64,000 bases of DNA from Escherichia phage PBECO4. Of this stretch, positions 1 to 59,127 are shown piece by piece; the first letter of the stretch is position 1, and every line of letters starts with the position of its first letter. The stretch lies in sequence record KC295538; one strand, written 5' to 3'. Below the pieces are notes generated by a model, which saw only the letters and a list, made by a program, of their open reading frames with translations, searched no databases and was not told where the DNA came from. The position numbers and the translations under genes are program-made.

Positions 1-165
1 CCACATATCGTTGTTGGTGTTGCGTCCCTAATAGTACACCCAACTTAGCTTCACACTCTAATAACAATCTGGTTTTGTATGGTAGACTTTGGAATCCTAT
101 AGTAGCATCTAATTTGGTAATTGCATAGTTGATTCGGATGAATCTTTCTTGCAATGTGATGTTGA

Positions 166-429
166 TCATTTCTTAGTACACCTCAGTGGTTGGGTCATTT
201 GATGAAAGTACAGCTTACCTCTGATTTCCAGTAGCAACTCCGCGATTAAGCGATTTACTTCTGTATCTTGATAGTTTGTTCCTAAGAATACACCCATCTT
301 TAACTCACGCATCATAATCATTTTCTTACTGTGTTGAATTTCTGGGTTGTGATAGATTGTATTACGTTTGTGCGTAATTTTTGTCATACGCTCGGTATAT
401 TCATCTTTACTTAAATTGATCATTTGCAT
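166..429 (-). CDS. small protein, family A (LGTNYQ-motif tandem paralog)
   Basis: Track ORF 166..456 trimmed to ATG at 429 (MQMINLSK..); N-term ..EY..R and C-term LGTNYQ motif shared with 16 neighbouring ORFs. Confidence 0.6.
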   Translation of the reverse strand: MQMINLSKDEYTERMTKITHKRNTIYHNPEIQHSKKMIMMRELKMGVFLGTNYQDTEVNRLIAELLLEIRGKLYFHQMTQPLRCTKK

Positions 430-458
430 GTTAATTACCCTTACATTTATTTTCAATA

Positions 459-698
459 CTATTCTTTAGTTTGTAGATATAGTTTTCTTCCAATGTATCT
501 CTTAAGTGCGATTATGTATTCATCTACATAATACTCCTGATAGTTTGTTCCTATGAATGCACCCACCTTTAACTCAAGTTTCATAATCATCTTATTTCCG
601 TGTTTAATGACTTCTCCGTGATGGATTTCATTAAGTCCAGGTGCAATTTTTACCAGGCGTTCTTTATATTTTGCTTGAGATAATTTAATCATTTTCAT
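459..698 (-). CDS. small protein, family A paralog
   Basis: Track ORF 459..725 starts on TTG; trimmed to ATG 698 (MKMIKLSQ..); FIGTNYQ motif. Confidence 0.6.
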   Translation of the reverse strand: MKMIKLSQAKYKERLVKIAPGLNEIHHGEVIKHGNKMIMKLELKVGAFIGTNYQEYYVDEYIIALKRYIGRKLYLQTKE

Positions 699-699
699 G

Positions 700-930
700 T
701 TAATTACCCTTACATTTATTTTCAATACTATTCATGAGTTCTATAAGATAGTTTTCTACCTTACCTTCCTGATAGTTAGTCCCTAGGAAGTTGCACAACA
801 CGGCTTCTATGATTTTGATTTTCCTGATATCAGGCTTCAATCTTTTGTTATTGAATATTTGAATCCTTATATCTCTGGATGCATTTAAACGTTTTTGATA
901 TTCATGGTAAGTTAAATTAATCATTTTCAT
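700..930 (-). CDS. small protein, family A paralog
   Basis: MKMINLTYHEY.. and FLGTNYQ motif; stop abuts next start. Confidence 0.6.
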   Translation of the reverse strand: MKMINLTYHEYQKRLNASRDIRIQIFNNKRLKPDIRKIKIIEAVLCNFLGTNYQEGKVENYLIELMNSIENKCKGN

Positions 931-1145
931 TTACGTTTAACCTCTCGCTGGAGGGCATCAATTAACATCAGTACAGCATTCTCTTGATAGTTTGTTCCTA
1001 AGACTGAAAGCATCTTTATCTCATTTACTAAAATCAACTTCTTTGAGGGTTCAATAATGTGACTATCATAAACGGCCTTACGTGCTGGATAAGTTTTCGC
1101 CAGTATAACATAAAATTCGTCTTTACTTAAATTAATCATTTGCAT
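927..1145 (-). CDS. small protein, family A paralog
   Basis: MQMINLSKDEF.. and VLGTNYQ motif; 4-nt overlap with neighbour. Confidence 0.6.
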   Translation of the reverse strand: MQMINLSKDEFYVILAKTYPARKAVYDSHIIEPSKKLILVNEIKMLSVLGTNYQENAVLMLIDALQREVKRK

Positions 1146-1354
1146 TTACTTTTAACCTCTTTCTGTAGAGCGTCAATCCATAGATCTACATACATTTGTT
1201 GATAGTTTGTGCCTAAGAGTGCACCTACATAGAGTTCAGTTACTAGTGCGTGCTTAAGGTTAGCTTGGATGCTCTTATCGCTTGATAAGATTTTCCTTCT
1301 GCTGGTGCATGTTTTCAGGAGTCTGATGTATTCAAAGCCTTGTAATTTTCTCAT
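1136..1354 (-). CDS. small protein, family A paralog
   Basis: LLGTNYQ motif; overlaps neighbours. Confidence 0.6.
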   Translation of the reverse strand: MRKLQGFEYIRLLKTCTSRRKILSSDKSIQANLKHALVTELYVGALLGTNYQQMYVDLWIDALQKEVKSKCK

Positions 1355-1566
1355 TCTTTTGATATCACCTTGTTACGTAAGGCACTTAACAATACGTCAG
1401 TGTAGATGTTTTGATAGTTTGTCCCTACGAAAGCACCCAACTTCATTTCAGCTATTATAACACATTTGTCCTCTTGTGCAATAGATTTGTTTAACACAAT
1501 ACTATACACTTTTGATTTGATAGTTTGTAACCTCCAATGATACTGATACTCATTAAGGATTATCAT
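1351..1566 (-). CDS. small protein, family A paralog
   Basis: FVGTNYQ motif; ATGA-type overlap. Confidence 0.6.
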   Translation of the reverse strand: MIILNEYQYHWRLQTIKSKVYSIVLNKSIAQEDKCVIIAEMKLGAFVGTNYQNIYTDVLLSALRNKVISKE

Positions 1567-1801
1567 TCTCTTTCCTCCAGATTTCGGTTCTCATGTGTTG
1601 GCAGTGTGCTTCGATGAACATATCTATTGATTTGGCAATTGCGTTTTTATCAGTGCCTGTCATCAGTACAAGCATCTCTGCCTCACTATGAATTAAACGC
1701 ATGATATCATAGGGTAATATTTCAGATACAGTGTCATAGTGTTTCTGTGCCAGTGTCTGCAATAGTTTACAATACATTTTGTGATTTAGTCTTTGTCGCA
1801 T
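1553..1801 (-). CDS. small protein, divergent family A member
   Basis: Same size and position in array; motif degraded to LMTGTDKN. Confidence 0.45.
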   Translation of the reverse strand: MRQRLNHKMYCKLLQTLAQKHYDTVSEILPYDIMRLIHSEAEMLVLMTGTDKNAIAKSIDMFIEAHCQHMRTEIWRKENDNP

Positions 1802-2058
1802 TGTTTATTCCATTCTTTTTTGGCTCTATGGGTTTTATATTGGATTTGGTTTCTCAATGCTGCCAGGTATCGTAGAATGAACAGTTCTTGATAGTTTGTT
1901 CCAATGAATTTCATAAGATAAACATCACCGTTGATAACATCCAATTCAGGTGCACCATGTAATGTATAGTTTTTTCTAAGGGTGTTAAGAATAGAGAAGA
2001 GGGCGGTTTGATACTCAGAGCTTGATAAAGTTTTCATATTTTTCCACAATTCGTTCAT
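1786..2058 (-). CDS. small protein, family A paralog
   Basis: FIGTNYQ motif; start may be internal ATG at 2037. Confidence 0.55.
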   Translation of the reverse strand: MNELWKNMKTLSSSEYQTALFSILNTLRKNYTLHGAPELDVINGDVYLMKFIGTNYQELFILRYLAALRNQIQYKTHRAKKEWNKQCDKD

Positions 2059-2272
2059 TTAGTTTTATCTGTATAAGATCCATTAGTTGTTCAAGATAAT
2101 CGGTACAATATTTCTCTTGATATTGGGTTCCCACAAAGTACAGCAACCATAGCTCATGAACTTTAACTTTCATCTCGTTCCATGAAAGTGCATCGTCATC
2201 GTAGATTACTCTTGCTTCTGGGGTGAGCTTTCGAATTCTAAGTGAATATTCATCGTTCGTCAAGTGTTTCAT
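2015..2272 (-). CDS. small protein, family A paralog
   Basis: MKHLTNDEY.. and FVGTQYQ motif. Confidence 0.6.
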   Translation of the reverse strand: MKHLTNDEYSLRIRKLTPEARVIYDDDALSWNEMKVKVHELWLLYFVGTQYQEKYCTDYLEQLMDLIQIKLNERIVEKYENFIKL

Positions 2273-2426
2273 TTACATTTATCCCTTATTAGATTTGTGA
2301 GTGCAACTATGTGTTCATGGATATAAAAATTCTGATGAGAAGTTCCAAGAAAGTACAACATCCCTCCCTCACTCTGCTCGACTTCTAGTTTAGTATCGAG
2401 TTGGTCAGATATGTTAATGAAAACCA
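2268..2426 (-). CDS. short family A paralog (52 aa, below track cutoff)
   Basis: Own translation of minus strand: MVFINISDQ...MLYFLGTSHQNFY..; fills the only gap in the array. Confidence 0.4.
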
Positions 2427-2651
2427 TTAGTTCTTTTCCTTTCTTTCTATTTGTTTCATAAGAACATTGATATACTCACCCGCAAACCTATTCTGATACT
2501 GCGTCCCCATGAATTCCAACATCCATACTTCAGCAACCTTTTCTTCAATTTCAGTCCATTGTAAGTACATCATAGTGAAGTAAATGGTGTTCTCTTTTTT
2601 TCTGGCACTCTTAGCACGGGCCTCGTATTCAAAGTTATTAATGATGTTCAT
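2427..2651 (-). CDS. small protein, family A paralog
   Basis: Track ORF 2427..2684 trimmed to ATG 2651 (MNIINNFEYEAR..); FMGTQYQ motif. Confidence 0.55.
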   Translation of the reverse strand: MNIINNFEYEARAKSARKKENTIYFTMMYLQWTEIEEKVAEVWMLEFMGTQYQNRFAGEYINVLMKQIERKEKN

Positions 2652-2865
2652 TACATTTGTCCATAATGTAATTCTTGAGTGCAACTATGTGTGCAATAAC
2701 ATACTCTTCCTGGAAGTTCGTCCCCAGTACAGCCATCATGCGTTTATCGGTGGTGTTTATCCTGTGTTCCCTTACACATAAACCTTCTTTGTGAGGAAGT
2801 GTAAAATATTTGTTTATTGCAGCAACGATAATTTTATTCTTCTCGGAGTTACTTAAATGTTTCAT
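2638..2865 (-). CDS. small protein, family A paralog
   Basis: MKHLSNSE.. and VLGTNFQ motif. Confidence 0.6.
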   Translation of the reverse strand: MKHLSNSEKNKIIVAAINKYFTLPHKEGLCVREHRINTTDKRMMAVLGTNFQEEYVIAHIVALKNYIMDKCNEHH

Positions 2866-3074
2866 AGTTTACTCCTGATATAATTCTGAAGTGCAATTAA
2901 GTATTCCCCTACATAATACACCTGAAAGTCTGTATCAAGGAATGCACCCATAAGTAAATCTTTTTCTAATACCCTTGATAAGTTAAGGTCTGCATTTGAA
3001 AGGTATATAAGTAAGATTTCACCCTGTGCGGAATTGAAACGTTTCTTATATTCTTCTGGTGTTAAAAAAATCAT
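2862..3074 (-). CDS. small protein, family A paralog
   Basis: MIFLTPEEYKKR.. and FLDTDFQ motif; 4-nt overlaps. Confidence 0.6.
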   Translation of the reverse strand: MIFLTPEEYKKRFNSAQGEILLIYLSNADLNLSRVLEKDLLMGAFLDTDFQVYYVGEYLIALQNYIRSKL

Positions 3075-3286
3075 AATTTGCTCCTGATATATTTCTCAAG
3101 AGATGACAAATACTTTTCCTCATAATACTTCTGATAGTCTGTTCCTAAGAATGCACCCAATAGTATATCATTTTCCAATACCTCGGCTAAGTTTAAATCA
3201 GAAGTCTCTTCGTATATTATGAGGATTTCAAGTTGTCTGGCAGCGATGCGTTCAGTATATTGATATGAGTTTTCTATAATAATCAT
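3071..3286 (-). CDS. small protein, family A paralog
   Basis: FLGTDYQ motif; close paralog of 2862..3074. Confidence 0.6.
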   Translation of the reverse strand: MIIIENSYQYTERIAARQLEILIIYEETSDLNLAEVLENDILLGAFLGTDYQKYYEEKYLSSLEKYIRSKL

Positions 3287-3492
3287 AATTTACTCTTTAT
3301 ATCTTGAATTAAAAATCGAATCCATTCTTCAACATAATCTTCCTGATGGTTTGTGTTCAGTACAGCCAACATGCGGATCTCTGCTCTTGCAACTTCAATT
3401 TCAGTTTTAGGAAGGTCTTTGCTGATATCCACCATTAAGTCCATGTATTTCAAGATAAGACCGTATGATTGGGTTCGTGTTATAGTTTTCAT
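3283..3492 (-). CDS. small protein, family A paralog
   Basis: VLNTNHQ motif; overlaps neighbours. Confidence 0.55.
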   Translation of the reverse strand: MKTITRTQSYGLILKYMDLMVDISKDLPKTEIEVARAEIRMLAVLNTNHQEDYVEEWIRFLIQDIKSKL

Positions 3493-3689
3493 TGTTTCCT
3501 CGTGGACAATATTTTATTTTTCAATGTATCCATATATTGAATCACCCATCTTTCCTGATAGTTAGTTCCCAAAGTAATCAAAAGGTATAACTCCATTCGT
3601 TCTACGTGTGTGTCTGTATTATAAATCTTTGTGAAGTTTTTACGTAACAGTGATTGATATTCTTCTTTATTTAAAATACGCATTTTCAT
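3489..3689 (-). CDS. small protein, family A paralog
   Basis: MKMRILNKEEY.. and TLGTNYQ motif. Confidence 0.6.
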   Translation of the reverse strand: MKMRILNKEEYQSLLRKNFTKIYNTDTHVERMELYLLITLGTNYQERWVIQYMDTLKNKILSTRKQ

Positions 3690-3883
3690 AGTTTACTCGT
3701 TATATCTTCAATTAAATACCAAATCCAATCGTTGACATACCTTTCCTGAAAGTTAGTTCCAATGAATAGTGCCATAATTAATTCACGCTTATAGGCAATA
3801 CCACGGTCATGGGACTTATACATTATCATAGCCATGTTATTGATAAGTCTTTCGTGGTGCTGTTCTTTAGTTAAAATACGCAT
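3686..3883 (-). CDS. small protein, family A paralog (first gene of array)
   Basis: MRILTKEQHHER.. and FIGTNFQ motif. Confidence 0.6.
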   Translation of the reverse strand: MRILTKEQHHERLINNMAMIMYKSHDRGIAYKRELIMALFIGTNFQERYVNDWIWYLIEDITSKL

Positions 3884-3969
3884 AGGATAAAATCCATAGG
3901 TTCATATGTGAAAAAACATCATACCCCATGTGAGGCATGATGTCAAGATGTTTTGTTCATATAAATGCA

Positions 3970-4335
3970 TTATACTTCAAATGAAATATTCCCAGTAGCA
4001 CGTGAGTCTTTACAATTCTCAATAGTAGTACATCCCAATTTTTGTATTTCACGTACCAATTCAATAGGAAGTTTAAAATCCCATTTCTTCGCTTCTTTTG
4101 CGAACGCTTTCTCGGACAGTACAACTAAGTTTTTTATACGAATCAATGAATAGATATCTGCATATTGATTTTCATCAATAGAAAATACCATTTCGTTATT
4201 GTTGCTAACAACTGATACAAGGGTGTCAGGTGCTTCAGTGATATCAGCAATGAATGATTTTATAGTAGATGTAGGTTTAAAAAACAACCATTCTACATTA
4301 AAGGAAGTACCACATTTATTAGATGATGGATTCAT
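3970..4335 (-). CDS. hypothetical protein (121 aa)
   Basis: Track ORF; sits upstream of array A, downstream of AT-rich promoter region. Confidence 0.55.
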   Translation of the reverse strand: MNPSSNKCGTSFNVEWLFFKPTSTIKSFIADITEAPDTLVSVVSNNNEMVFSIDENQYADIYSLIRIKNLVVLSEKAFAKEAKKWDFKLPIELVREIQKLGCTTIENCKDSRATGNISFEV

Positions 4336-4618
4336 AGTTCGGTGACCTCTAAAGTTGAGTTAATGTAACTAACATATAAAATATGAATGAAATATAATAT
4401 AGACTATATATTATCAGAATTATATAAAAAGTCAAGCCCCTATCACTCCTTTTTTCGAAGTCGCTAAGGTTACCCGCCCTTTAGCCCCCTACGCATTTTG
4501 CCATAGTCCAATCCCTTTTATTTCAAAAAAGTCAAGGGATTACCTATGCATTTTTTTAACGCATAATTTTAAAAACGCCTTGACTTTTTTCTGAATCAGT
4601 ACTAGATCCCTTTACGCA
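4336..4618. promoter_or_regulatory. AT-rich intergenic region with three TTGACT boxes, two in inverted orientation; probable promoter region for leftward operon
   Basis: aaaaagtcaag at ~4427 and ~4524, inverted copy ccttgactttttt at ~4587; no ORF. Confidence 0.35.
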
Positions 4619-19397: not shown

Positions 19398-19426
19398 TTG
19401 ACAACTGCATCCAGTACTGGCATAAT
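19398..19426 (+). promoter_or_regulatory. + strand sigma70-like promoter (TTGACA-N17-CATAAT) driving a short noncoding transcript
   Basis: ttgaca 19398..19403, cataat 19421..19426; downstream box ctaacccaccgggtgc; no + strand ORF. Confidence 0.45.
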
Positions 19427-19500
19427 TACTACATCAAGACGAAACAGTCACTAACCCACCGGGTGCCGAGATCCGTCTATTAAATGATTCAGTACTTAAC

Positions 19501-19524
19501 AATAAAGGGGATCAATCGATCCCC
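19501..19524 (-). terminator. hairpin terminator (minus strand; may also stop the + strand transcript)
   Basis: ggggatcaatcgatcccc with flanking A/T runs immediately 3' of gene 19531..19752. Confidence 0.5.
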
Positions 19525-19530
19525 TATGTA

Positions 19531-19752
19531 TTACTTAGTAAGGTATAAACAGAAGTCACCTTTATTTGCTACGCCGCCAGTGTAACGCGATGAATAGTTA
19601 GAAACGTCCTGGACTTCTGCTATTACCAGTGTATCATCATTCAATTCGTCGCAGAAGCAAACGGCTGGATCTTTTACGCCGATCTTGTCGGCATGTTCCC
19701 GCATAGATTTAACCAGTGCTTCCAGTTGAGAAAGAGTAGTGATATTAGCCAT
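19531..19752 (-). CDS. hypothetical protein
   Basis: Track ORF trimmed to ATG 19752 (MANITTLSQ..). Confidence 0.55.
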   Translation of the reverse strand: MANITTLSQLEALVKSMREHADKIGVKDPAVCFCDELNDDTLVIAEVQDVSNYSSRYTGGVANKGDFCLYLTK

Positions 19753-21819: not shown

Positions 21820-21848
21820 TTGACAGCATTATCAAGTACTGGCATAAT
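21820..21848 (+). promoter_or_regulatory. + strand sigma70-like promoter (TTGACA-N17-CATAAT) driving a short noncoding transcript
   Basis: ttgaca 21820..21825, cataat 21843..21848; downstream ctaacccaccgggtgc box then atagatacactcccgcaccctatgggct box. Confidence 0.45.
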
Positions 21849-22022
21849 ATACCACATGACAACAGCTAACCCACCGGGTGCACAATTGTAACTATACTAA
21901 ACTAATTTTTCTATAGATACACTCCCGCACCCTATGGGCTACGGCTTATCTGCCAATGAATACATTATGCCAGTACTGACAAAATAAGTCAATACCGGCA
22001 ATTGTAAAGATTTGTAAACTAC

Positions 22023-22253
22023 TTATACTGCAATCGCGTCCAGGCTATAATAATAATAAGTGCCGTATTGGTGTACTTTATTACCTTTTATTTCAGTACT
22101 GAATGAATCCGAACGATTTGCATATGATGTTAATTTAAAGTACTTTGATTTGCTGATACGTTGCCATACACCACAGATCCGCTGTAAGTAAGTAGTTTTA
22201 TTCGTGGTAGTATCTTTTACGGTTTTAACTTCAGTCATATACATATTAGTCAT
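22023..22253 (-). CDS. hypothetical protein
   Basis: Track ORF. Confidence 0.55.
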   Translation of the reverse strand: MTNMYMTEVKTVKDTTTNKTTYLQRICGVWQRISKSKYFKLTSYANRSDSFSTEIKGNKVHQYGTYYYYSLDAIAV

Positions 22254-22340
22254 TTTTATTACTCCAGGTTATAGGCGGGAAGAGTTCCCGCTCTCGATGT
22301 AAAACATTATACGCCTTTAAACATAGTTTGCAAGTACTTT
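22254..22340 (-). promoter_or_regulatory. sigma70-like promoter + 5' UTR hairpin
   Basis: gcgggaagagttcccgc hairpin. Confidence 0.55.
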
Positions 22341-22607
22341 TTATTCAAGTACTGCAATCTTTTTAGTACGGTACACGGTCACGCGGTTGCCCTTTCGGTC
22401 GAGCTTTATTTCTACCACTCGACGCGATACACTATCGGGACTTTTTAAGGCCGCTAACCAGTACTGTAATGATCTGGCTGTACTACGCTTTACAATGGCC
22501 CAACGTTTACCACGTTCCGATTGTACGCCCATATCTTTAAACGTTGCCCCGTCCTGGCGTGCGGCGATCCGAGCTTGTTCACGCGTCGCAAAATACTTAA
22601 TATTCAT
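22341..22607 (-). CDS. hypothetical protein, paralog of 9448..9843
   Basis: Trimmed to ATG 22607 (MNIKYFATREQARIAARQDGATFKDMG..). Confidence 0.6.
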   Translation of the reverse strand: MNIKYFATREQARIAARQDGATFKDMGVQSERGKRWAIVKRSTARSLQYWLAALKSPDSVSRRVVEIKLDRKGNRVTVYRTKKIAVLE

Positions 22608-22697
22608 GCTGTTGCCCTTATCGTTGGTGTATGAATAAAACACTATTATAAAGTACTATCGCAAAAAATGATAGTACTTTAAATAAATTCTATTCTA

Positions 22698-22937
22698 TTA
22701 CATTCCAACCATCGCCGCACGGATCGCAGTAGTGCTATACTTAAAGCCGTCCGGTGTTTTATCTTGTCCAGTCTGTTCTAAAAATAGCATCATATGACGG
22801 GCCGCATCATTACGATTAGTATTGGCGGCAATAAAGTCCTGGGCCAACCGATACAATCCCTCATCGTTATTAATCCAAAGGCTTACATTCCAATGAGTTT
22901 TGTTTTTGTGACCTAAGAACATTTTTGATTTAGCCAT
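22698..22937 (-). CDS. hypothetical protein, paralog of 20650..20889
   Basis: Trimmed to ATG 22937 (MAKSKMFLGHKNKTHWN..). Confidence 0.6.
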   Translation of the reverse strand: MAKSKMFLGHKNKTHWNVSLWINNDEGLYRLAQDFIAANTNRNDAARHMMLFLEQTGQDKTPDGFKYSTTAIRAAMVGM

Positions 22938-23019
22938 TTTTTTAATCCTCTTATATAGTGGGGAACTATTCCCCACCTGATGTAAAGTATTATACGCTTT
23001 TAAATTTAGTTTGCAAGTA
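22938..23019 (-). promoter_or_regulatory. sigma70-like promoter + 5' UTR hairpin
   Basis: gtggggaactattccccac hairpin. Confidence 0.55.
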
Positions 23020-23253
23020 CTATTTTTTCAGTACTGGTAAACCTTTGATCTCACCTGGCTGTACTTCCTCAAAGGCGACCGCCATCATACGGCTATCATC
23101 TTCCTTACATTCTTCCATCGCATCACAAAAATGATTAATAACGTCCGGTGCAACGTCAACCACATCAAACAAGCCAACCTCAGTGCAACGGCTTAAAGCG
23201 TTTAATAGGTCAGTCAGTGCAACGGATTGAGAAACAGTTAAAATAGTACTCAT
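23020..23253 (-). CDS. hypothetical acidic protein
   Basis: Track ORF. Confidence 0.55.
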   Translation of the reverse strand: MSTILTVSQSVALTDLLNALSRCTEVGLFDVVDVAPDVINHFCDAMEECKEDDSRMMAVAFEEVQPGEIKGLPVLKK

Positions 23254-23347
23254 ACAATTAATCTCTTAATTATAGTGGGGAACTATTCCCCACCTGATGT
23301 AAAACATTATACGCTTTTAAACTTAGTTTGCAAGTACTTTATTAAAC
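23254..23347 (-). promoter_or_regulatory. sigma70-like promoter + 5' UTR hairpin
   Basis: Same hairpin as 22938..23019. Confidence 0.55.
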
Positions 23348-23710
23348 TTATTTGTAAATTTTGCCACTGTCAGCCCATACCAGGAAACGAGGCATATTAT
23401 CCCATGCATCTTGTTTTAAATTTAAACCGTGCAATTCCTCAGTAGTTGCCATCCCTGGTACTGGCTTACTACACACCGCGAAATTTTCGCCCATATACTG
23501 ATAAACCATCGTCAAATCATTTGAGATCATCTTATGGATCATCGCATCAAGCATCACGGTAGCGGCGTATTGTTCACGCTTAAGCGGCAGCATTTTAATC
23601 AGTTCGCGGTATGCGTCAATGTGAGTTTTAACCGTTGCCGCCGGAAGATCTTTCATCTCGTCGCGGAAGTTAACCAGGTTAGCAATAATTTTGGTGATTT
23701 GAGTTGCCAT
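23348..23710 (-). CDS. hypothetical protein
   Basis: Track ORF trimmed to ATG 23710 (MATQITKIIA..). Confidence 0.6.
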   Translation of the reverse strand: MATQITKIIANLVNFRDEMKDLPAATVKTHIDAYRELIKMLPLKREQYAATVMLDAMIHKMISNDLTMVYQYMGENFAVCSKPVPGMATTEELHGLNLKQDAWDNMPRFLVWADSGKIYK

Positions 23711-23800
23711 CGTTTTAATCTCTCTTAAAGTGTAGCGGGAACACTTCCCGCTCTCGATGTAAAACATTATACGCTTTTATCAGTACGGTGCAAGTACTTT
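23711..23800 (-). promoter_or_regulatory. sigma70-like promoter + 5' UTR hairpin (last unit before noncoding hub)
   Basis: gcgggaacacttcccgc hairpin. Confidence 0.55.
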
Positions 23801-23825
23801 CTACAAATACTTTTAAAATAGTTTT

Positions 23826-23917
23826 CTTTCTATATAGGAGTACTATTATTCAGTACTGAATCAATCCAGGGGAACTATCTTTCTATATAGGAGTACTATT
23901 ATTCAGTACTGAATCAA
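23826..23917. repeat. 39-bp direct repeat x2
   Basis: ctttctatataggagtactattattcagtactgaatcaa at 23826..23864 and 23879..23917. Confidence 0.7.
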
Positions 23918-24069
23918 CCAAATCACTACTACACCCCATAAAACGGCCTCAGACGCATTCTAACGCATTAATACACCTAAGCTATACATTTGCACCACTC
24001 CCAACAATCCAGGGCGTTACGGGCCGTTTAAACGCGTTAAATTATTTTCAATTATTTTGTTTTTAGGTA

Positions 24070-24097
24070 TTGACTTGATCCTGAAAAAGCGTATAAT
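24070..24097 (+). promoter_or_regulatory. + strand promoter (TTGACT-N16-TATAAT)
   Basis: ttgact 24070..24075, tataat 24092..24097; downstream gggtgcgg ... ccgcaccc long-range inverted repeat. Confidence 0.45.
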
Positions 24098-24284
24098 TAC
24101 TACATAGACGCGAGAAAGCGGAAACCCCAGAGGGTGCGGAATTACGCCCAAAATTCAAGATATAAAAAAAGGATACACTCCCGCACCCTAGCAGGTAAAC
24201 GCACTTTCTCAGTACTGAATTATAGTACCATAGTCCGGCCCAGGATGGCAAGCAAATTAATTAAAACTTTTTTCATCCAGGGTA

Positions 24285-24312
24285 TTGCTTTATTTTTCCA
24301 GTACTGTATAAT
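24285..24312 (+). promoter_or_regulatory. + strand promoter with TTGCTTTA box upstream of TATAAT (resembles a T4 MotA-box middle promoter)
   Basis: tattgctttat 24283..24293, tataat 24307..24312; downstream cccaccgggtgc box. Confidence 0.35.
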
Positions 24313-24533
24313 AGTTCCATCAAGTCGAGAAAGACTCAAGCCCACCGGGTGCATAGTTACGCCCAAAATTCAGTACTGAAAAAATTTTTAAAAATATCCG
24401 TCCAGGCCGTTGACATTGCCCCCAGTTTATAAGATAATGATTCCAGATTCAGAAAAATCTAACTCCAGATACTGCGGGGAAACTATCCCCACGCGGTAGG
24501 GGAACTATTGGAAAAAACAAAATAAAATTTTGA

Positions 24534-24680
24534 TTTAGCCGTCTATACTTCCAGACGTGTAACCATCTAGCCGTTTAGCCGTCCAAACGTCTAGCCATCC
24601 AGCCATCCAGAAATCTAGCCGTTTAGCCGTCTAGATGGATAGCCATCTTTACTTCCAGACTTCTGGAGGGCTAGACATAT
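24534..24680. repeat. iteron-like cluster of ~8 short direct repeats (TAGCCGT/TAGCCAT) flanked by tacttccagac repeats
   Basis: ctagccgtttagccgtc, ctagccatccagccatccag, ctagccgtttagccgtctag; tacttccagac at ~24546 and ~24651. Confidence 0.6.
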
Positions 24681-25705
24681 CTACGTCCAAAATCCACCCA
24701 GGGTAACTACGCCCAAAATCCGTCAGTACTATACCATAGATCTATCTTTTGAAAGGGAGTATTCAGTACTGCCACAATAGCCCTCACTATGTTACCCTAG
24801 GAGGATGAAGACTATCATGTAGTACTGAATACTGTTAGAGGGAATCCACCAGCTTGTGCTGGTGGCATAATGCTTTAGATTAAAATCAGTACTGACACCA
24901 TTCTGTTAATATCAGTACTGTTATTACGATTTTCATATGAGGTTCAAAAAGATGTACCACCACAGGAGGAACTATCTTTTCTGTACTGTCTCACGACAGG
25001 AGGTAGAGTAAATGAATTGTTCGCAGCAACTCATCACCCTATGTAGAACATTATACAGTACTGAATCATAATGTCAATAGCTTTCTTTCATTATTCAGTA
25101 CTGATATTCTTGAGAACTACCCGACTACAAACATCATTATATCCCACAAATCATAAACGTCCCAACGTAAATTTCAACTTTCGAAGATCCAACTTTTATT
25201 TCATAGGTACTCCAAAATTTTTAGGATCGAGATTTAGGATGGAGTACTAACCAACTTTTTGCTGGAGCCTCAAGGGGTAATGGAATTTTACCCCGAAGGG
25301 TAAAGGGGTAATTGAAATTAAGGTGAAAGTAATAATTCAGTACTAATCATTGCGTGATTACTTTTGATTACATTTGATGTAATTTGAAAAATGGAAAAGG
25401 AGCTTGGAAACTACAAAGTACGGCAGACTTCCTCTGCCTACTTAGTGGCATATCAGTACTGAATCCTTCCCGTGCATTCTTGAGCATTCTTGTCTATACT
25501 AATCAGTACTGAATCATATATAATCATTCTGTGATTCTACGGTGCTCATATAAATGTTTATATATGATTACTTATGACTACCTATGATTACGGGGTTTAG
25601 CCTGGGGAGAATCCTAGTGATCGCATTTGTCCAGGCTGAATTTTAACAATTCGCCTGTACATAAAGGTTGTTCACTAGGAGCTTCCCCTGTCTACTTGTG
25701 TTTAA

Positions 25706-25897
25706 TTACTTCCTATATATAAGCATTAAGATATAGTAGTACTGATTATACTGTACATTCTCTTTAATATTATAAGGGTCTATAGCAATCTCGGTACATC
25801 TGTTAAATGCATATCTATTAAATGCCAGTGGAATTATAGATCTAATCCATACTTGTTCATTTTCTTTTAGTTTACTTATATAGAAGTTTTTATACAT
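25706..25897 (-). CDS. small protein, family B tandem paralog
   Basis: ~60 aa; N-term M.KEFY-like, C-term hydrophobic ..LIYRK; one of ~17 tandem copies. Confidence 0.55.
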   Translation of the reverse strand: MYKNFYISKLKENEQVWIRSIIPLAFNRYAFNRCTEIAIDPYNIKENVQYNQYYYILMLIYRK

Positions 25898-25912
25898 AGT
25901 ATTCTCTATTAA

Positions 25913-26095
25913 TTAATATGATAGTACTAGTGTTAGTACTGAGCACAATTGTTCTTTGTAGTTCTTAGGGTATATAGAATCTTTTATGCACTCATTGAAG
26001 TGCCATAGGTATAATCTTGGGTCGCATTCTTTATATATTCTTACGGGGACGAATGTTAGTTTTCGTATATAGAATTCTTTATGTTCTTTATTCAT
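25913..26095 (-). CDS. small protein, family B paralog
   Basis: MNKEHKEFYIRKL.. Confidence 0.55.
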   Translation of the reverse strand: MNKEHKEFYIRKLTFVPVRIYKECDPRLYLWHFNECIKDSIYPKNYKEQLCSVLTLVLSY

Positions 26096-26096
26096 A

Positions 26097-26285
26097 TTAG
26101 TACCTGAATATAAGTAGGATTATGTTATAGTACTGGTTAGTACTGCAATGATTCTCTATACATCGATTAACAGTTATGGAATAGCTATATCTGGCGTAAG
26201 CATTATCCAGCGGGATTTTACATTGAGCACTTAGAGAAAGTACAGTAGGTAGTGTATTCAAATAGAAGTCTTTGTAATTATTCAT
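26097..26285 (-). CDS. small protein, family B paralog
   Basis: MNNYKDFYLNTL.. ..LLIFRY. Confidence 0.55.
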   Translation of the reverse strand: MNNYKDFYLNTLPTVLSLSAQCKIPLDNAYARYSYSITVNRCIENHCSTNQYYNIILLIFRY

Positions 26286-26487
26286 ACAGGAATAGTATAC
26301 CTATGATACCTGAGTACAGGTTAGTACTGTTACCATCTTCGTTTGCGTTTAAAGTCATTTGAATACAATTATTGTAGCATACTCTGCCGAAAAATGTATT
26401 AGTACTTAAAGGTGGAGTAGTCCTTAGAAACATTTGTTCTGAGGGGCTTATGTATTTGGAGTAGAATTCTTTATGTTCTTTATTCAT
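26278..26487 (-). CDS. small protein, family B paralog
   Basis: MNKEHKEFYSKYISPSEQ.. ; near-duplicate of 29118..29327. Confidence 0.55.
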   Translation of the reverse strand: MNKEHKEFYSKYISPSEQMFLRTTPPLSTNTFFGRVCYNNCIQMTLNANEDGNSTNLYSGIIGILFLYE

Positions 26488-26492
26488 ATTAG

Positions 26493-26678
26493 TTAGTGTC
26501 TGTATATAAGTAATAGTAAGAATACGTACTGCACATCTTCATCTTTAGTATTGAGTACTGTACGTATTGCGTCATTAAACAAGAATATAGTACTTGGGTC
26601 ATGAAAATTTAAAGGGGTTCTGGGTACGGCATGTTTGTAGTTCCCTTTAACAAATTGTGTGTAGTATTCTCTATGCAT
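26493..26678 (-). CDS. small protein, family B paralog
   Basis: MHREYYTQF.. ..LLLIYRH. Confidence 0.55.
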   Translation of the reverse strand: MHREYYTQFVKGNYKHAVPRTPLNFHDPSTIFLFNDAIRTVLNTKDEDVQYVFLLLLIYRH

Positions 26679-26679
26679 A

Positions 26680-26865
26680 TTAGTACCTATATATTAGGGC
26701 GAGAATGTAGTACAATTCATATGGAATGTAATTTGGGGTGATCGCACACTGTGTATGGTAAATGAATTGTTCGGTATTTTTCTTATCCTTGATATCTATT
26801 GGGATTTGTGGTATAAGCATTTTGGAGTTTAGATCGAGATGGCTTAAGTAGAATTCTTTATGCAT
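26680..26865 (-). CDS. small protein, family B paralog
   Basis: MHKEFYLSHL.. ..LALIYRY. Confidence 0.55.
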   Translation of the reverse strand: MHKEFYLSHLDLNSKMLIPQIPIDIKDKKNTEQFIYHTQCAITPNYIPYELYYILALIYRY

Positions 26866-26874
26866 ATTGTTCTC

Positions 26875-27063
26875 TTAGAATACGAAAGCTAGGTACAGGG
26901 TATGATACAGTACTCGATGATAGCTGTCAAAATCTAGTATACATGCTTTAGTGCACATAGTAAAGTACACTTTATCGTTTTGTGCATTGATACCGCGAGG
27001 TTTATCTAATAGATTAGTTCTGAGGTACATTGGGAAATATTTTGTGTAGTATTCTTTATGCAT
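26875..27063 (-). CDS. small protein, family B paralog
   Basis: Trimmed to MHKEYYTKYF.. Confidence 0.5.
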   Translation of the reverse strand: MHKEYYTKYFPMYLRTNLLDKPRGINAQNDKVYFTMCTKACILDFDSYHRVLYHTLYLAFVF

Positions 27064-27064
27064 A

Positions 27065-27247
27065 TTAGTACCTGAATATAAGTAGGATAGTGTTATATAG
27101 CTGGTCATAACTACTACTATTTTCTATACTTCGTTCTATGCAGTTATTGAATCCCAGTACTGCCAAATCGTTATCCAGGGGGACTTTGTATCTGGTGTAG
27201 TGTTCAAAAATGCTGGGGAGAAATTGTGTGTAGTATTCTTTGTGCAT
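27065..27247 (-). CDS. small protein, family B paralog
   Basis: MHKEYYTQFL.. ..LLIFRY. Confidence 0.55.
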   Translation of the reverse strand: MHKEYYTQFLPSIFEHYTRYKVPLDNDLAVLGFNNCIERSIENSSSYDQLYNTILLIFRY

Positions 27248-27248
27248 A

Positions 27249-27434
27249 TTAGTACTTATATATTAGTAAAAGGATGTGATACAGTACTCGATTATAGTCT
27301 TCAATATATATCGAGGATTTAGTGCACTGAATGAAGTAGTCTTTTTCGTAGTTTTTTTCTATACCCAATGCAACGTTTGGTACAAGGTGTTGGAGATACA
27401 TTGGGAGTTTCTCTATGTAGTATTCTTTATACAT
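27249..27434 (-). CDS. small protein, family B paralog
   Basis: MYKEYYIEKL.. ..LLIYKY. Confidence 0.55.
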   Translation of the reverse strand: MYKEYYIEKLPMYLQHLVPNVALGIEKNYEKDYFIQCTKSSIYIEDYNRVLYHILLLIYKY

Positions 27435-27443
27435 ATATTATCC

Positions 27444-27641
27444 TTAGTACTGGAACGCAAGGTACAGGGTGTGGTACAGTTGTACTTGATAATTGTTTTC
27501 ATTAGCTTCTTCATTAAGTACTTGTTCAGTACATGTACGGAAGTAATCAGCTTCATATATACAGTCAATACCGCGAGGTTCATCTTCTAATAGATTTCCT
27601 TGTAGAAACTTTGGTAGTTCTTTTATGTAGAATTCTTTATA
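27444..27641 (-). CDS. small protein, family B paralog
   Basis: Trimmed to MYKEFYIKELPKF.. Confidence 0.5.
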   Translation of the reverse strand, partial: YKEFYIKELPKFLQGNLLEDEPRGIDCIYEADYFRTCTEQVLNEEANENNYQVQLYHTLYLAFQY

Positions 27642-28308
27642 CATAGTTTGTAATATACGTAATGAGGTGATGCATTTTCTTATTAGTACTGATAATTTCC
27701 TGTACATGTTTTGTCAGATTGTACGCGTTTTTATAGAGTGCTGGATTATCGATTACAGTACTGTACATGAATAGTTCTTCCTCGGATAATTCTTTGCCTT
27801 GTAATTCTTTGAGGAATTGTAGTACTGTATCAGTTTCTTCTGTACGTTGTGCTTGCCAGAAGTGCATATTCTCGTGTACTTTTTCTGCATCAGTAGAGTA
27901 TATGCCACCCATTTGGAATTGTGCTGTATTGACATCGTGGGAGGTGTTACAATTCCCGAAGAAGTATGTATTCCCGAAGTATAGCATTAAAGTGCACGGG
28001 GTATTATCCAACTGCATATTGATGATGAAGGATGCGTTCTTTAGTACCTTTGTGCTCGTATTAGTACTCAATACTTTTAAATCAGTATTATAGATATTCA
28101 TATAATGAACAGCTATATTATTTTTCTTCATGTACAATTCAAGGTTCTTTGATACGTTAACTCCATTTGTACTGGATTTTTCCTTTTTATTTCGTTTCTT
28201 TAGTACATTCGGGTGATACGTATATGCAGATGTAACTGATTCTGCCTGAATACTATTGAGGTACTTAAAGTGCTTAAGGTATTGTTTGCTGTGTGCATTA
28301 AGTTTCAT
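27637..28308 (-). CDS. hypothetical protein (223 aa) embedded in family B array
   Basis: Track ORF; overlaps next start; no family motif. Confidence 0.55.
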   Translation of the reverse strand: MKLNAHSKQYLKHFKYLNSIQAESVTSAYTYHPNVLKKRNKKEKSSTNGVNVSKNLELYMKKNNIAVHYMNIYNTDLKVLSTNTSTKVLKNASFIINMQLDNTPCTLMLYFGNTYFFGNCNTSHDVNTAQFQMGGIYSTDAEKVHENMHFWQAQRTEETDTVLQFLKELQGKELSEEELFMYSTVIDNPALYKNAYNLTKHVQEIISTNKKMHHLITYITNYV

Positions 28309-28325
28309 TTGGTTTCCTTTATATA

Positions 28326-28502
28326 GATGCCAGGGCGAGGATTTCCCTGTAGGGATTATCTTGTGTTAGTACAGCATAAATGCAGCTATTGAGATTAATA
28401 TTTTTAGTACTTTTTGTTCCTAGTTTGTAGTACTTCACGAAGGTGTCGTACATGAAACGGTCTTTTATGGTTATACGTTCTCTATAGAATTGTTGCATAG
28501 TA
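28326..28502 (-). CDS. short family B-like paralog (58 aa)
   Basis: Own translation MQQFYRERITIKDRFMYDTF.. Confidence 0.35.
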
Positions 28503-28506
28503 TTCC

Positions 28507-28689
28507 TTAAATAGCGATTAGTTTCATTACTTCTCTGTATGTGTACTTTTCGTTTTGTGCATCTCTTGTGACGACATATAGGAAGGTGTGTTTATCTTTT
28601 TTGTTCCCGCAATTGTAGAAAATATTGAACTTATTGAAGTTGAATCTTTCGGCGTGTTGTAGTTTAGTTAAATAGAATTCTATGTTCAT
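28507..28689 (-). CDS. small protein, family B paralog
   Basis: MNIEFYLTKL.. Confidence 0.5.
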   Translation of the reverse strand: MNIEFYLTKLQHAERFNFNKFNIFYNCGNKKDKHTFLYVVTRDAQNEKYTYREVMKLIAI

Positions 28690-28697
28690 TTTCTTCC

Positions 28698-28883
28698 TTA
28701 CATTTCAATAAGTTTCAGTACTGCTCGGTACGTGTACTTAGTTGTCAGTGCTTCTTTAATAGAAATACAGAAGTAATGTTGTTTGTCTCTTATACTGCCG
28801 CGTTTGTAGTACCACACATGGGAGTTGTGACTGTACTTGTCTCTGTCGGATAGTTGTTGGTAGTAGTAGCTTATATGATTCAT
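28698..28883 (-). CDS. small protein, family B paralog
   Basis: MNHISYYYQQL.. ; paralog of 28507..28689 (..TKYTYR.V.KLI..). Confidence 0.5.
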   Translation of the reverse strand: MNHISYYYQQLSDRDKYSHNSHVWYYKRGSIRDKQHYFCISIKEALTTKYTYRAVLKLIEM

Positions 28884-28930
28884 TGTAATTAGCCTTACTA
28901 TGTTAAAGTACTCGGTCCCTGGTGTACCTT

Positions 28931-29125
28931 TTAGAACTTAAAGATGAGGTTCAGGATAGAGCGGTACTTAGTTGCAGGGAACGTATGTTCTATTGCATAA
29001 CGTGTCACCATCCTGAAATCGTAATTATAATACAGATTATCCTTTCTCATAGGTGGTGCTAAAGAGAATGATAGCTGTTCTTGTTTGGGTAGTTTACTAC
29101 AATAGAAATCTTTATGATTATTCAT
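28931..29125 (-). CDS. small protein, family B paralog
   Basis: MNNHKDFYCSKL.. Confidence 0.5.
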   Translation of the reverse strand: MNNHKDFYCSKLPKQEQLSFSLAPPMRKDNLYYNYDFRMVTRYAIEHTFPATKYRSILNLIFKF

Positions 29126-29327
29126 AGAAATATATTAGTCCTATTAAACCTGAGTACATAATATTTTTGTTATTACATTCGATTGCTTCTATAGTACTAC
29201 GTATACAATTATTAAAGCAATCTCTGGCGTGTGGTGTATCTATACTTAAAGGTGATACACTCCTTAGAAACAATTGTTCTTCGTTGCTAAGGTATTTGGT
29301 GTAGAATTCTTTATGTTCAGTATTCAT
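29118..29327 (-). CDS. small protein, family B paralog
   Basis: MNTEHKEFYTKYLSNEEQ.. Confidence 0.55.
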   Translation of the reverse strand: MNTEHKEFYTKYLSNEEQLFLRSVSPLSIDTPHARDCFNNCIRSTIEAIECNNKNIMYSGLIGLIYFYE

Positions 29328-29328
29328 A

Positions 29329-29532
29329 TTAGTACTCGATTAAAAGGGCAAGGATATAATAGTATTGCATACTTTCTGCCCCTTGTAAAGCATTTCTTAT
29401 GATATTACTCCTGTACGAGTTCAGGAGTTTAGGACAACGTTTGTAGTGTATAAAAGTATTTTGTGTATACAGTAGGCTTTCTCGTAGACCTTTTGTTGGT
29501 AGTGCATCGATGTAGTACTGTTCAATGTTCAT
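29329..29532 (-). CDS. small protein, family B paralog
   Basis: MNIEQYYIDAL.. Confidence 0.5.
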   Translation of the reverse strand: MNIEQYYIDALPTKGLRESLLYTQNTFIHYKRCPKLLNSYRSNIIRNALQGAESMQYYYILALLIEY

Positions 29533-29756
29533 ATAGATAGCAGTACTAAGATTTTTGATAATTGTTTATTGCTATCCCCGCAGATGTTGCTGTGTAAAAT
29601 ACTCACAATGAGGGTATCAATTGCATTGTTCATCATAAGGGTGCATCCTGGACTATTATAATTTTTTAGCTCAATTAGCCACGAACTATCCGCGAGAAAT
29701 TCCCCGTACTCTAGTTCATTTAGAGTATTGAGGTAGTACTTAAGAGTATTTGTCAT
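29529..29756 (-). CDS. small protein, family B paralog (first gene of array)
   Basis: MTNTLKYYLNTL..; TTGACA-N17-TACTAT promoter upstream on minus strand. Confidence 0.5.
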   Translation of the reverse strand: MTNTLKYYLNTLNELEYGEFLADSSWLIELKNYNSPGCTLMMNNAIDTLIVSILHSNICGDSNKQLSKILVLLSI

Positions 29757-59100: not shown

Positions 59101-59127
59101 AAAAAAGGCTGACCGAAGTCAACCTTT
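59101..59127. terminator. TTGACT-containing hairpin element (copy 12)
   Basis: aaaaaaggctgaccgaagtcaaccttt. Confidence 0.5.

Follow-up and report, generated by a model that had tools for sequence, protein, structure and literature searches.

The DNA analysed here, called the window throughout, is the whole 64,000-nucleotide stretch of Escherichia phage PBECO4 (KC295538), and our subject is a gene-free region of about 2 kb within it, which we denote the hub. The hub lies between two genes of the minus strand (23348-23710 and 25706-25897) whose small products are annotated as hypothetical proteins. Megablast search seeded with the hub region retrieved 42 phage records, 31 of which cover at least 80 % of the region, and all of the matches listed are jumbo phages of Escherichia coli or Salmonella. 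According to the taxonomy of these records, 121Q, G17, phAPEC6, ph0011, A4 and EJP2 belong to the genus Asteriusvirus, and sequence similarity assigns the window to the same genus, as part of a 121Q/PBECO4-like jumbo coliphage genome of approximately 350 kb. Blastn comparison of the hub with 5,426 E. coli genomes yielded no match, so that the hub is not host-derived DNA. The start of the left flanking gene is most likely 23710, as annotated in 121Q, rather than 23767, and the true non-coding span is therefore about 23711-25705. The features on which the analysis centres are the following.

23711-25705: non-coding terminal hub, between the two flanking genes, delineated from lists of open reading frames (ORFs) and from relatives
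4467-25442: predicted direct terminal repeat (DTR) of 20,976 bp, placed by homology to the ends of G17, fEgEco12 and vB_Ec-M-J
24537-24680: tandem array of MetJ met boxes, with 14 in-register boxes at 24537-24648 and weaker ones to about 24680

A first-pass annotation, made from the letters of the window alone, had described 23801-25705 as a gap without a credible ORF, and this description holds: the hub is left empty in the curated annotations of four relatives (G17, phAPEC6, 121Q and A4), and the hub ORFs 24134-24379 and 25071-25250, both on the plus strand, are disrupted by 1-nt indels in relatives. The same annotation took the gap to be the only long stretch without an ORF, which is true only in part. 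The hub is by far the biggest annotated gap locally, but other ORF-poor stretches are present because the genes in this part of the genome are tiny. All of the items that it listed for the gap are present at or near the places where it put them. A tRNA and tmRNA scan of the window was negative, and search of the region 22000-28000 against Rfam 15 produced a single match that was below threshold, at chance level and outside the structured units described below. Treating the hub as a region of DnaA, Fur, IHF or GATC sites was rejected, these motifs being absent or at chance level in it.

The position of the hub with respect to the chromosome ends can be read from relatives with resolved termini. 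The record of G17 is linear and its first 20,668 bp, a repeat derived from read coverage, recur exactly at its end; on the window, the right end of G17 corresponds to 25442 and the left end to 4467. The record ends of fEgEco12 and vB_Ec-M-J fall on the same two bases of the window. In fEgEco12, the ends were determined with PhageTerm and checked with restriction digests, with a repeat of 20,993 bp, and PhageTerm gave a DTR of 20,668 bp for phage Sharanji. Furthermore, in six linear records, two of which are also among the three phages just compared, the met-box array begins 763-773 bp from the record start, which fits an end at 25442. The physical cut is predicted at 25442|25443 and the other end at 4467; the hub consists of the right-hand 1.7 kb of the DTR and 263 bp past the DTR boundary. 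With high confidence, then, the hub is a terminal control region of the DTR, and the comparison with relatives supports the presence within it of the virion DNA end, that is, the packaging cut. Among the functions that the first-pass annotation had offered for the gap, a packaging site or genome end is thus borne out, and the mapping of genome ends that it had proposed as a check gives, by homology, the ends of three relatives at 25442, inside the hub, and at 4467. Around the right end, we noted the following elements.

25411-25448: imperfect palindrome spanning the end, core GGCAGA-CTTCC-TCTGCC, fold z-score -2.6, the end falling after 25442
25355-25388, plus strand: TGATTAC-type repeats, recurring about every 10 bp, immediately inside the end
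25555-25591, plus strand: second set of TGATTAC-type repeats, outside the DTR
25598-25694: inverted repeat (arms of 23 nt, spacer of 51 nt), directly past the stop codon of the minus-strand gene 25706-25897

The sequence around 25442 is identical in G17, phAPEC6, 121Q and ph0011. A window-wide excess of TGATTAC can be dismissed (17 found versus 15 expected), the motif being clustered around the end alone. The palindrome and the TGATTAC-type repeats are candidate terminase signals; no motif common to the two ends, 4467 and 25442, was found.

The repeats that the first-pass annotation had called an iteron-like cluster do form an array with an 8-bp period at 24537-24680, but their units are 8-bp met boxes: in 8-bp frames they resemble AGACGTCT, the met-box consensus. 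Boxes were scored with the published matrix and thresholds of Augustus & Spicer, under which a box has to reach 3.1 bits, one quarter of the consensus, and an array has to comprise two or more neighbouring boxes that keep the 8-bp register and together score no lower than the consensus, 12.58 bits. Fourteen consecutive boxes of the hub each exceed the box threshold (3.8-10.7 bits) and add up to 102.8 bits, compared with a maximum of 22.1 in 200 shuffles of the window, and scoring of the rest of the 64 kb revealed one marginal site. Applied to 7 kb of E. coli K-12 as a control, the same procedure detected two sites and no others, the metJ-metB operator and one immediately ahead of metF. Each of these comprises four boxes, the totals being 31.2 bits for metB and 24.9 bits for metF; per box, this amounts to 7.8 and 6.2 bits, respectively, against 7.3 for the phage array. 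By the published matrix, the array is indistinguishable from a 14-box MetJ operator. It is like the E. coli operators in its 8-bp period, position preferences and score per box, and differs from them in size: those operators have 2-5 boxes, whereas 14-17 are found here and up to 28 in an Aeromonas phage. The array begins 99 bp after the -10 hexamer of the plus-strand promoter denoted C below, and no gene follows it.

The distribution of the array extends far beyond Asteriusvirus. In distant blastn searches, the array alone matches very different phages, namely Eneladusvirus jumbo phages of Erwinia, Serratia and Yersinia together with GAP32 and CBB, T5-like phages of Aeromonas, Vibrio and Providencia, and the T7-like phages PGT2, phiKT and KPV811; most of these matches are found no more than 1 kb from the end of a record. 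The longest met-box run is 7-14 in relatives, 9 in PGT2 and 28 (221 bits) in Aeromonas phage AhSzq-1, and array length changes in whole-box steps, those of G17 and A4 differing from the window by 16 nt fewer and 8 nt more, respectively. MetJ is confined to five gammaproteobacterial orders (Enterobacterales, Pasteurellales, Vibrionales, Aeromonadales and Alteromonadales). E. coli K-12 has an annotated metJ, and of the 94 records with the array, 93 are from phages whose hosts belong to Enterobacterales, Vibrio or Aeromonas. We therefore consider the array, with good confidence at the level of sequence, to be a MetJ-type super-operator, and infer that it would be bound by host MetJ; that it acts as a MetJ decoy can be put forward with low to moderate confidence. 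Two other identities of the octamers were rejected: the Chi-like sequence GCTGGATGG falls short of an exact Chi, its orientation also being wrong for the near end, and a CsrA sponge made of GGA repeats is at odds with the fact that GGA is not a conserved part of the unit in other phages. A literature search for the array octamers, and for MetJ together with phage, returned nothing relevant.

Another signal linked to the DNA end is Chi, which occurs in the hub in the following arrangement.

24846-24865: back-to-back Chi hairpin, CCACCAGC-TTGT-GCTGGTGG

Ten of the 11 exact Chi sites of the window (GCTGGTGG) are located in the DTR (5828, 7628, 9032, 11331, 12599, 13644, 17800, 17862, 24846 and 24858), where about 0.07 to 0.17 would be expected per strand, an enrichment of approximately 50-fold; the other 43 kb of the window contains just one. 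The distance from the plus-strand Chi (24858) to the end at 25442 is 584 bp, and this site is oriented for RecBCD entering there; eight minus-strand sites are recognisable by RecBCD entering at 4467. The same pattern is seen in G17. The Chi sites may serve to protect the DNA ends from RecBCD. The loop of the double Chi (24854-24857) is TTGT in the window and in some relatives and its reverse complement ACAA in three relatives (comparison with G17, phAPEC6 and 121Q), as if it had been flipped between the inverted arms.

Promoters of the host type are present on both strands of the hub.

24070-24097, plus strand: promoter A, TTGACT-16-TATAAT, with an invariant A/T-rich block upstream at 24040-24069
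24285-24312, plus strand: promoter B, TTGCTT-16-TATAAT, with CAGTACTG in the spacer
24410-24438, plus strand: promoter C, TTGACA-17-GATAAT
25077-25050, minus strand: perfect consensus sigma70 promoter (12/12), TTGACA-16-TATAAT, with CAGTACTG in the spacer, conserved in relatives
24887-24920, minus strand: two CAGTACTG palindromes forming a terminator-like hairpin with a T-rich run behind it, some 125 nt downstream of the promoter at 25077
23766-23798, minus strand: early promoter of the first DTR gene, with the -10 at 23771-23766, the -35 at 23793-23788 and AGTACT abutting the -35

The two plus-strand promoters of the first-pass annotation are thus to be amended: strong promoters do exist on this strand, but their number is three. 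The count from a simple promoter scan is at chance level (17 found versus 16.2 expected). In an alignment of seven relatives, the hexamers of the hub promoters are fixed and the spacers vary; promoter C of 121Q, for instance, has another spacer with both hexamers kept. The promoter at 25077-25050 is the outermost inward-facing promoter of the hub, and that at 23766-23798 has the same design as the class-1 promoters from the promoter scan. Over the whole window, the scan listed 74 sigma70-like sites on the minus strand versus 19 on the plus strand, many of them scoring 11-12/12 and most located in the DTR ahead of small genes. The DTR, then, is a block of small early genes, most of which have their own sigma70-type promoter. 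In PA5oct, a distant relative, many genes of the 39-kb DTR are highly transcribed early (PMC7318152). The dense clustering of host-type promoters and protein-binding motifs in the hub agrees with a regulatory region, another of the options originally offered for the gap.

Two further arrangements recur among the minus-strand genes. In one, the -35 lies within a terminator-like hairpin, and the T-run of this hairpin spans the interval to the -10 (aaaGGGTTGACTtcGGTCAGCCCtttttgcTATAAT); examples are found at 59122, 55880, 55697, 53031, 48833, 47909, 46119, 15039, 11419, 8200 and 5943, and the cassette looks like a combined stop-and-restart signal between genes. The other is a GC hairpin, GCGGGAACACTTCCCGC, between promoter and ribosome-binding site, at 23734-23752 and in the leaders of many minus-strand early genes, which gave a weak, sub-threshold match to the Rfam family 'skipping-rope' (E = 0.2).

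Downstream of the plus-strand promoters, pointing outwards, we detected candidate structured small RNAs, with copies of the same design inside the DTR.

24102-24199, plus strand: unit A, candidate structured small RNA with a P1 hairpin, a P2 helix GGGTGCGG/CCGCACCC and an alternative P3 (GGGTG/CGCCC), then AAAATTC
24311-24414, plus strand: unit B, truncated paralogue that retains just P1 and P3 of unit A, covariance-model match of 32.8 bits
24470-24515, plus strand: unit C, hairpin GCGGGG...CCCCaCGC, then a GGGGAACTATTGGAAAA box
24682-24722, plus strand: two more TACG(T/C)CCAAAAT motifs, one with a P3-like hairpin
21820-21943, plus strand: promoter and unit-A-like element inside the DTR, covariance-model copy at 21844-21943, faced by a minus-strand promoter at 21992
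19398-19535, plus strand: promoter and truncated unit inside the DTR, covariance-model copy at 19425-19535

P2 of unit A is a long-range helix with an outer CCC/GGG stem, and the unit C hairpin is followed by a GGGGAACTAT box and then by the met-box array. Homologues of unit A with the same order of elements are present in Asteriusvirus, Alcyoneusvirus (Muenster and RaK2), Eneladusvirus (pEa_SNUABM_12 and fHe-Yen9-03), GAP32 and Kaldavass; the inserts between the P2 arms vary in length, the extracted units ranging from 104 to 126 nt. In an alignment of 13 sequences, P3 is paired in 98.5 % of the cells, with only G.U-compatible changes, and P1 and outer P2 show compensatory changes on both sides; shift controls for the pairing of P1, P2 and P3 all peak at zero. 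RNAalifold alone recovers only an invariant 7-bp core, so the covariation support is moderate. The inner stem of unit C, as read from the sequences, is GGGG/CCCC here and the fully compensated CTAG/CTAG in an Erwinia relative. Fold z-scores against shuffles are -3.4 for unit A and -3.3 for unit C, and the covariance model scores unit A at 109 bits on the plus strand versus 27 on the minus strand. The G.U pattern likewise favours a plus-strand RNA. Furthermore, each covariance-model copy sits just after a plus-strand promoter that the promoter scan had listed independently. Searches of 22000-28000 assigned the units to no Rfam family. With moderate confidence, we predict that the outward units are RNA genes. 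The DTR of PA5oct contains two abundant non-coding RNAs of 236-451 nt without a described structure (PMC7318152); these too are non-coding and reside inside a long DTR, one that is transcribed early. The plus-strand elements at 19.4 and 21.8 kb are antisense to early genes, and at 21820-21992 both strands may be transcribed, given the convergent promoter.

The hub also contains short palindromes, boxes and a direct repeat.

23825-23917: 53-bp tandem duplication, with perfect 40-nt copies at 23825-23864 and 23878-23917, each containing AGTACT and TCAGTACTGA

The duplication corresponds to the 39-bp direct repeat at 23826-23917 of the first-pass annotation, which is confirmed with slightly longer copies, 53 bp apart. 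Its copy number differs among relatives, and it therefore looks like a recent tandem duplication. The annotation was also right about some 20 palindromes in the gap: we counted 19 AGTACT cores in the hub, along with 12 copies of CAGTACTG and eight exact copies of TCAGTACTGA. The AGTACT palindrome is, however, a window-wide motif and not a signal specific to the hub, as it occurs 266 times in the window versus 22 expected (12-fold over-represented), with no copy in 1-4597, which takes in the 4.5 kb ahead of the DTR. The 8-mer CAGTACTG is present in 56 copies in the window versus 0.8 expected, and it is for this 8-mer alone that the hub is enriched (12 of the 56 copies in 3 % of the sequence). 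Both exact GGGAACTAT boxes (two) and boxes with one mismatch (three) were found in the hub, in line with the first-pass annotation, and four of the seven window copies of GGAACTAT are located there, versus 0.2 expected from its share of the length. AGTACT is often found directly upstream of the -35 (AGTAC-TTGCAA) or of the -10 (AGTACTG-TATAAT, AGTACTGG-CATAAT); the two placements are about 21 bp apart, a spacing that suggests an operator, and AGTACT in these places may be an operator-like site for some factor. A purely promoter-borne element does not account for the motif: within the DTR, only some 40 % of its copies adjoin a -35 or -10, and in 25.7-33 kb not one of 41 is placed in this way. 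Comparison with LexA, ArgR, MetR and TrpR sites gave no convincing fit.

A comparable terminal region has been described in phage T5. Repeat Region 3 of T5 is a non-coding region of 1.2 kb at the end of the left terminal repeat that overruns the repeat by 270 bp, carries repeats, palindromes and DnaA boxes, and has been proposed to be an injection stop signal (Davison, bioRxiv 10.1101/866236). Both it and the hub are non-coding, measure 1.2-2 kb and occupy the far end of a DTR that is long and contains the first-expressed genes; the overrun past the repeat boundary is about 270 bp in T5 and 263 bp in the hub; both regions are rich in palindromes and in direct and inverted repeats, which show better conservation than the genes beside them; and both contain clusters of sites for host proteins, DnaA boxes in T5 and met boxes in the hub. 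However, T5 has paired DnaA boxes inside inverted repeats whereas the hub is devoid of DnaA boxes, the repeats are 10 kb long in T5 and 21 kb here, the outward promoters with structured RNA units found here are without description for T5, and the two-step DNA transfer of T5 is not known for these jumbo phages. Distant blastn search with the hub listed no T5 (Tequintavirus) record, and T5-like Vibrio, Aeromonas and Providencia phages match the hub only via the array.

The link with T5 is closer in the Klebsiella relatives. The T5 repeat element 'AAATGAGAATCATTATCATTTG' recurs in Klebsiella phage Muenster, not in the window. The hub of Muenster is laid out as units A, B and C, then an array, then the end, and in place of met boxes its array consists of repeats that are nearly identical to the T5 repeat element and resemble Fur boxes, with seven sites at no more than four mismatches from the Fur consensus GATAATGATAATCATTATC in 1660-2200 versus 0.02 expected. 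Similarly, Klebsiella RaK2-like phages have 6-7 Fur-like sites and T5 has two (1075-1135) versus about 0.02 expected, and AhSzq-1 has four in 5.1 kb around its array versus 0.01 expected. This modular swap of arrays, met boxes for Fur-like repeats, suggests that the terminal regions collect host-regulator sites. Another system with related elements is the T7-type concatemer junction, which combines fixed ends, short repeat arrays and hairpin-forming sequence near the boundary of a 160-bp repeat. It also has host-type promoters near the end, one of them pointing outwards; it differs from the hub in the length of the repeat (160 bp versus 21 kb) and in the sequences of the repeat units.

Several alternative explanations of the hub and of its array have to be weighed against a control region at a chromosome end with a MetJ-type array. 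The array might be bound by a phage protein, of the ribbon-helix-helix type or a small terminase subunit, as a packaging recognition site without involvement of MetJ; ribbon-helix-helix proteins typically bind short tandem repeats, and in many terminal-repeat phages the array lies within about 1 kb of the record ends. We consider this unlikely, given that one and the same binding protein would be needed in jumbo myoviruses, T5-like siphoviruses and a 46-feature T7-like podovirus, all of which have these octamers, that the hub layout persists in the Klebsiella relatives although they lack the array, and that the host distribution of the array tracks MetJ. Similarly improbable, in our estimation, is that the hub as a whole is the counterpart of the T5 injection stop signal, at which entry would pause after the DTR as host proteins such as MetJ bind the DNA, and early DTR genes would act before the rest of the genome enters. 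The match in layout to Repeat Region 3, including the nearly equal overrun, speaks for this possibility, as do the proposal that protein-binding boxes make up the stop signal (Davison, bioRxiv 10.1101/866236), the repeat element that the Klebsiella relatives have in common with T5, and the eight or nine Chi sites guarding the other end, on this view the leading one and thus exposed. However, two-step transfer is not reported for these phages in the literature found, the PGT2 array lies 40-114 bp from the left end of its record and not at the far end of a long repeat, and the stop-signal mechanism of T5 is itself unproven.

A replication origin, the remaining function proposed in the first-pass annotation, fares worse. 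The hub might be or contain an origin, through iterons or through outward promoters that prime by R-loops as at T4 oriF/oriG, and this would suit the cumulative GC-skew minimum at about 25-26 kb, the strong promoters, the conserved sequence downstream of them and the G-rich RNA segments, and the T4-type replication machinery of Rak2-like phages noted in the comparison of the CBB paper. But the hub contains no consensus DnaA box (TTWTNCACA), no recognisable initiator gene adjoins it, the supposed iterons fit the MetJ matrix and are common to unrelated phage families, and RNA units of the unit-A type are also found at 19.4 and 21.8 kb and hence are not unique to one site. The skew analysis suggested as a check does show a flip at about 25.5-26 kb, which was set aside as an origin marker because it tracks the G-poor coding strand of a paralogous gene family and, further on, gene strand. 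The family in question is a tandem array of more than 12 minus-strand genes of about 60 codons at 25706-29756, with products that have starts such as MHKEYY and ends such as LLLIYRY. On this evidence an origin is a decidedly improbable reading, within which an R-loop-primed origin at one outward promoter is possible. It is less probable still, and very unlikely, that the array works as RNA, transcribed from promoter C into C-rich 8-nt repeats that would form a Rho loading site or a protein sponge: the promoter, some 100 bp ahead of the array, is directed into it, and by eye the plus strand of the array looks C-rich and G-poor, but PGT2 has no obvious promoter upstream of its array, and the box pattern A1, G2, C4, T6, C7, T8 fits the DNA-binding matrix position by position. 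Least probable of all is that the hub encodes small proteins missed by annotation. Automatic annotation puts 6-13 hypothetical proteins under the region in some records, and a GGAGG-N8-ATG start precedes a 19-codon ORF at 25013; however, the ATG of this ORF is lost in A4 and EJP2, and the indels in the longer ORFs and the empty annotations of four relatives argue in the same direction.

On balance, we find it probable that the hub is a non-coding control region at one chromosome end of an Asteriusvirus jumbo phage, bringing together the DNA end, promoters, RNA units, Chi sites and a MetJ-type array. A number of observations weigh against parts of this reading. The ends of the window phage were placed by homology to end-resolved relatives. 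The array does not overlap the promoter of a repressed methionine gene, unlike natural operators, which overlap the promoter of the gene that they regulate; the phage array has neither such a promoter nor such a gene and lies at a chromosome end. Position 3 of its boxes is mostly C rather than A, and C is the minority base at this position in natural boxes, including the E. coli operators. Klebsiella RaK2-like phages and T5, when scored in the same way, have no met-box array. The sole exception in host range is Xanthomonas phage XbC2, the recorded host of which is outside the MetJ orders; its array is at 648-768 of the record, about 0.7 kb from the start, and the phage belongs to the genus of Cronobacter phage GAP32. 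The P2 core of unit A is almost invariant and could equally be a DNA-level inverted repeat, and the orientation of the Chi sites also coincides with gene direction.

Under the control-region reading, the parts of the hub would act as follows. The array would bind host MetJ-S-adenosylmethionine (SAM) cooperatively, as a DNA-only decoy or anchor. With two copies per genome, multiplied by replication, MetJ would be titrated and the methionine/SAM genes derepressed; alternatively, MetJ on the array may build a protein block near the end. Chi would protect the DNA end from RecBCD, the end palindrome and the TGATTAC repeats would guide terminase, the outward RNAs may be abundant early regulators, and AGTACT beside the -35 or -10 would act as an operator-like site. 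The E. coli chromosome has a site of this kind in datA, a DnaA sink that titrates the regulator rather than controlling an adjacent gene. The concept of a cluster of binding sites that soaks up a regulator is the same; datA, however, is host-chromosomal and directed at DnaA, whereas the sites of the hub are virus-borne, their target would be MetJ, and their role is putative.

A more general and tentative proposal, which we hold to be possible rather than probable, is that terminal-repeat phages carry arrays of host-regulator sites near their DNA ends as protein-free devices for host takeover, the 14-box array derepressing methionine/SAM synthesis. Such arrays would soak up or recruit a regulator upon DNA entry and increasingly so with replication. 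Candidates with MetJ boxes would be Asteriusvirus, Eneladusvirus, GAP32-like phages, T5-like Vibrio and Aeromonas phages and some T7-like phages; other candidates would be the Fur-box-like repeats of Klebsiella RaK2-like phages and T5, and the DnaA boxes of T5.

The ends of these 350-kb phages have been mapped before, and the content of the 2-kb gene-free block at the end is without description in the literature found. If the interpretation is correct, the array would be a virus-borne MetJ super-operator, found in three phage families that are unrelated to one another and nearly restricted to MetJ-bearing hosts, and it would give viruses a novel means of redirecting host metabolism that needs nothing but DNA. 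The problem of the T5 injection stop signal would become tied to a wider class of terminal regions that is open to comparative study. The Chi pattern suggests how these phages protect their exposed DNA ends from RecBCD, and the promoter-driven structured RNAs, if they indeed constitute a new family, would be candidates for the first regulators made in jumbo-phage infection.

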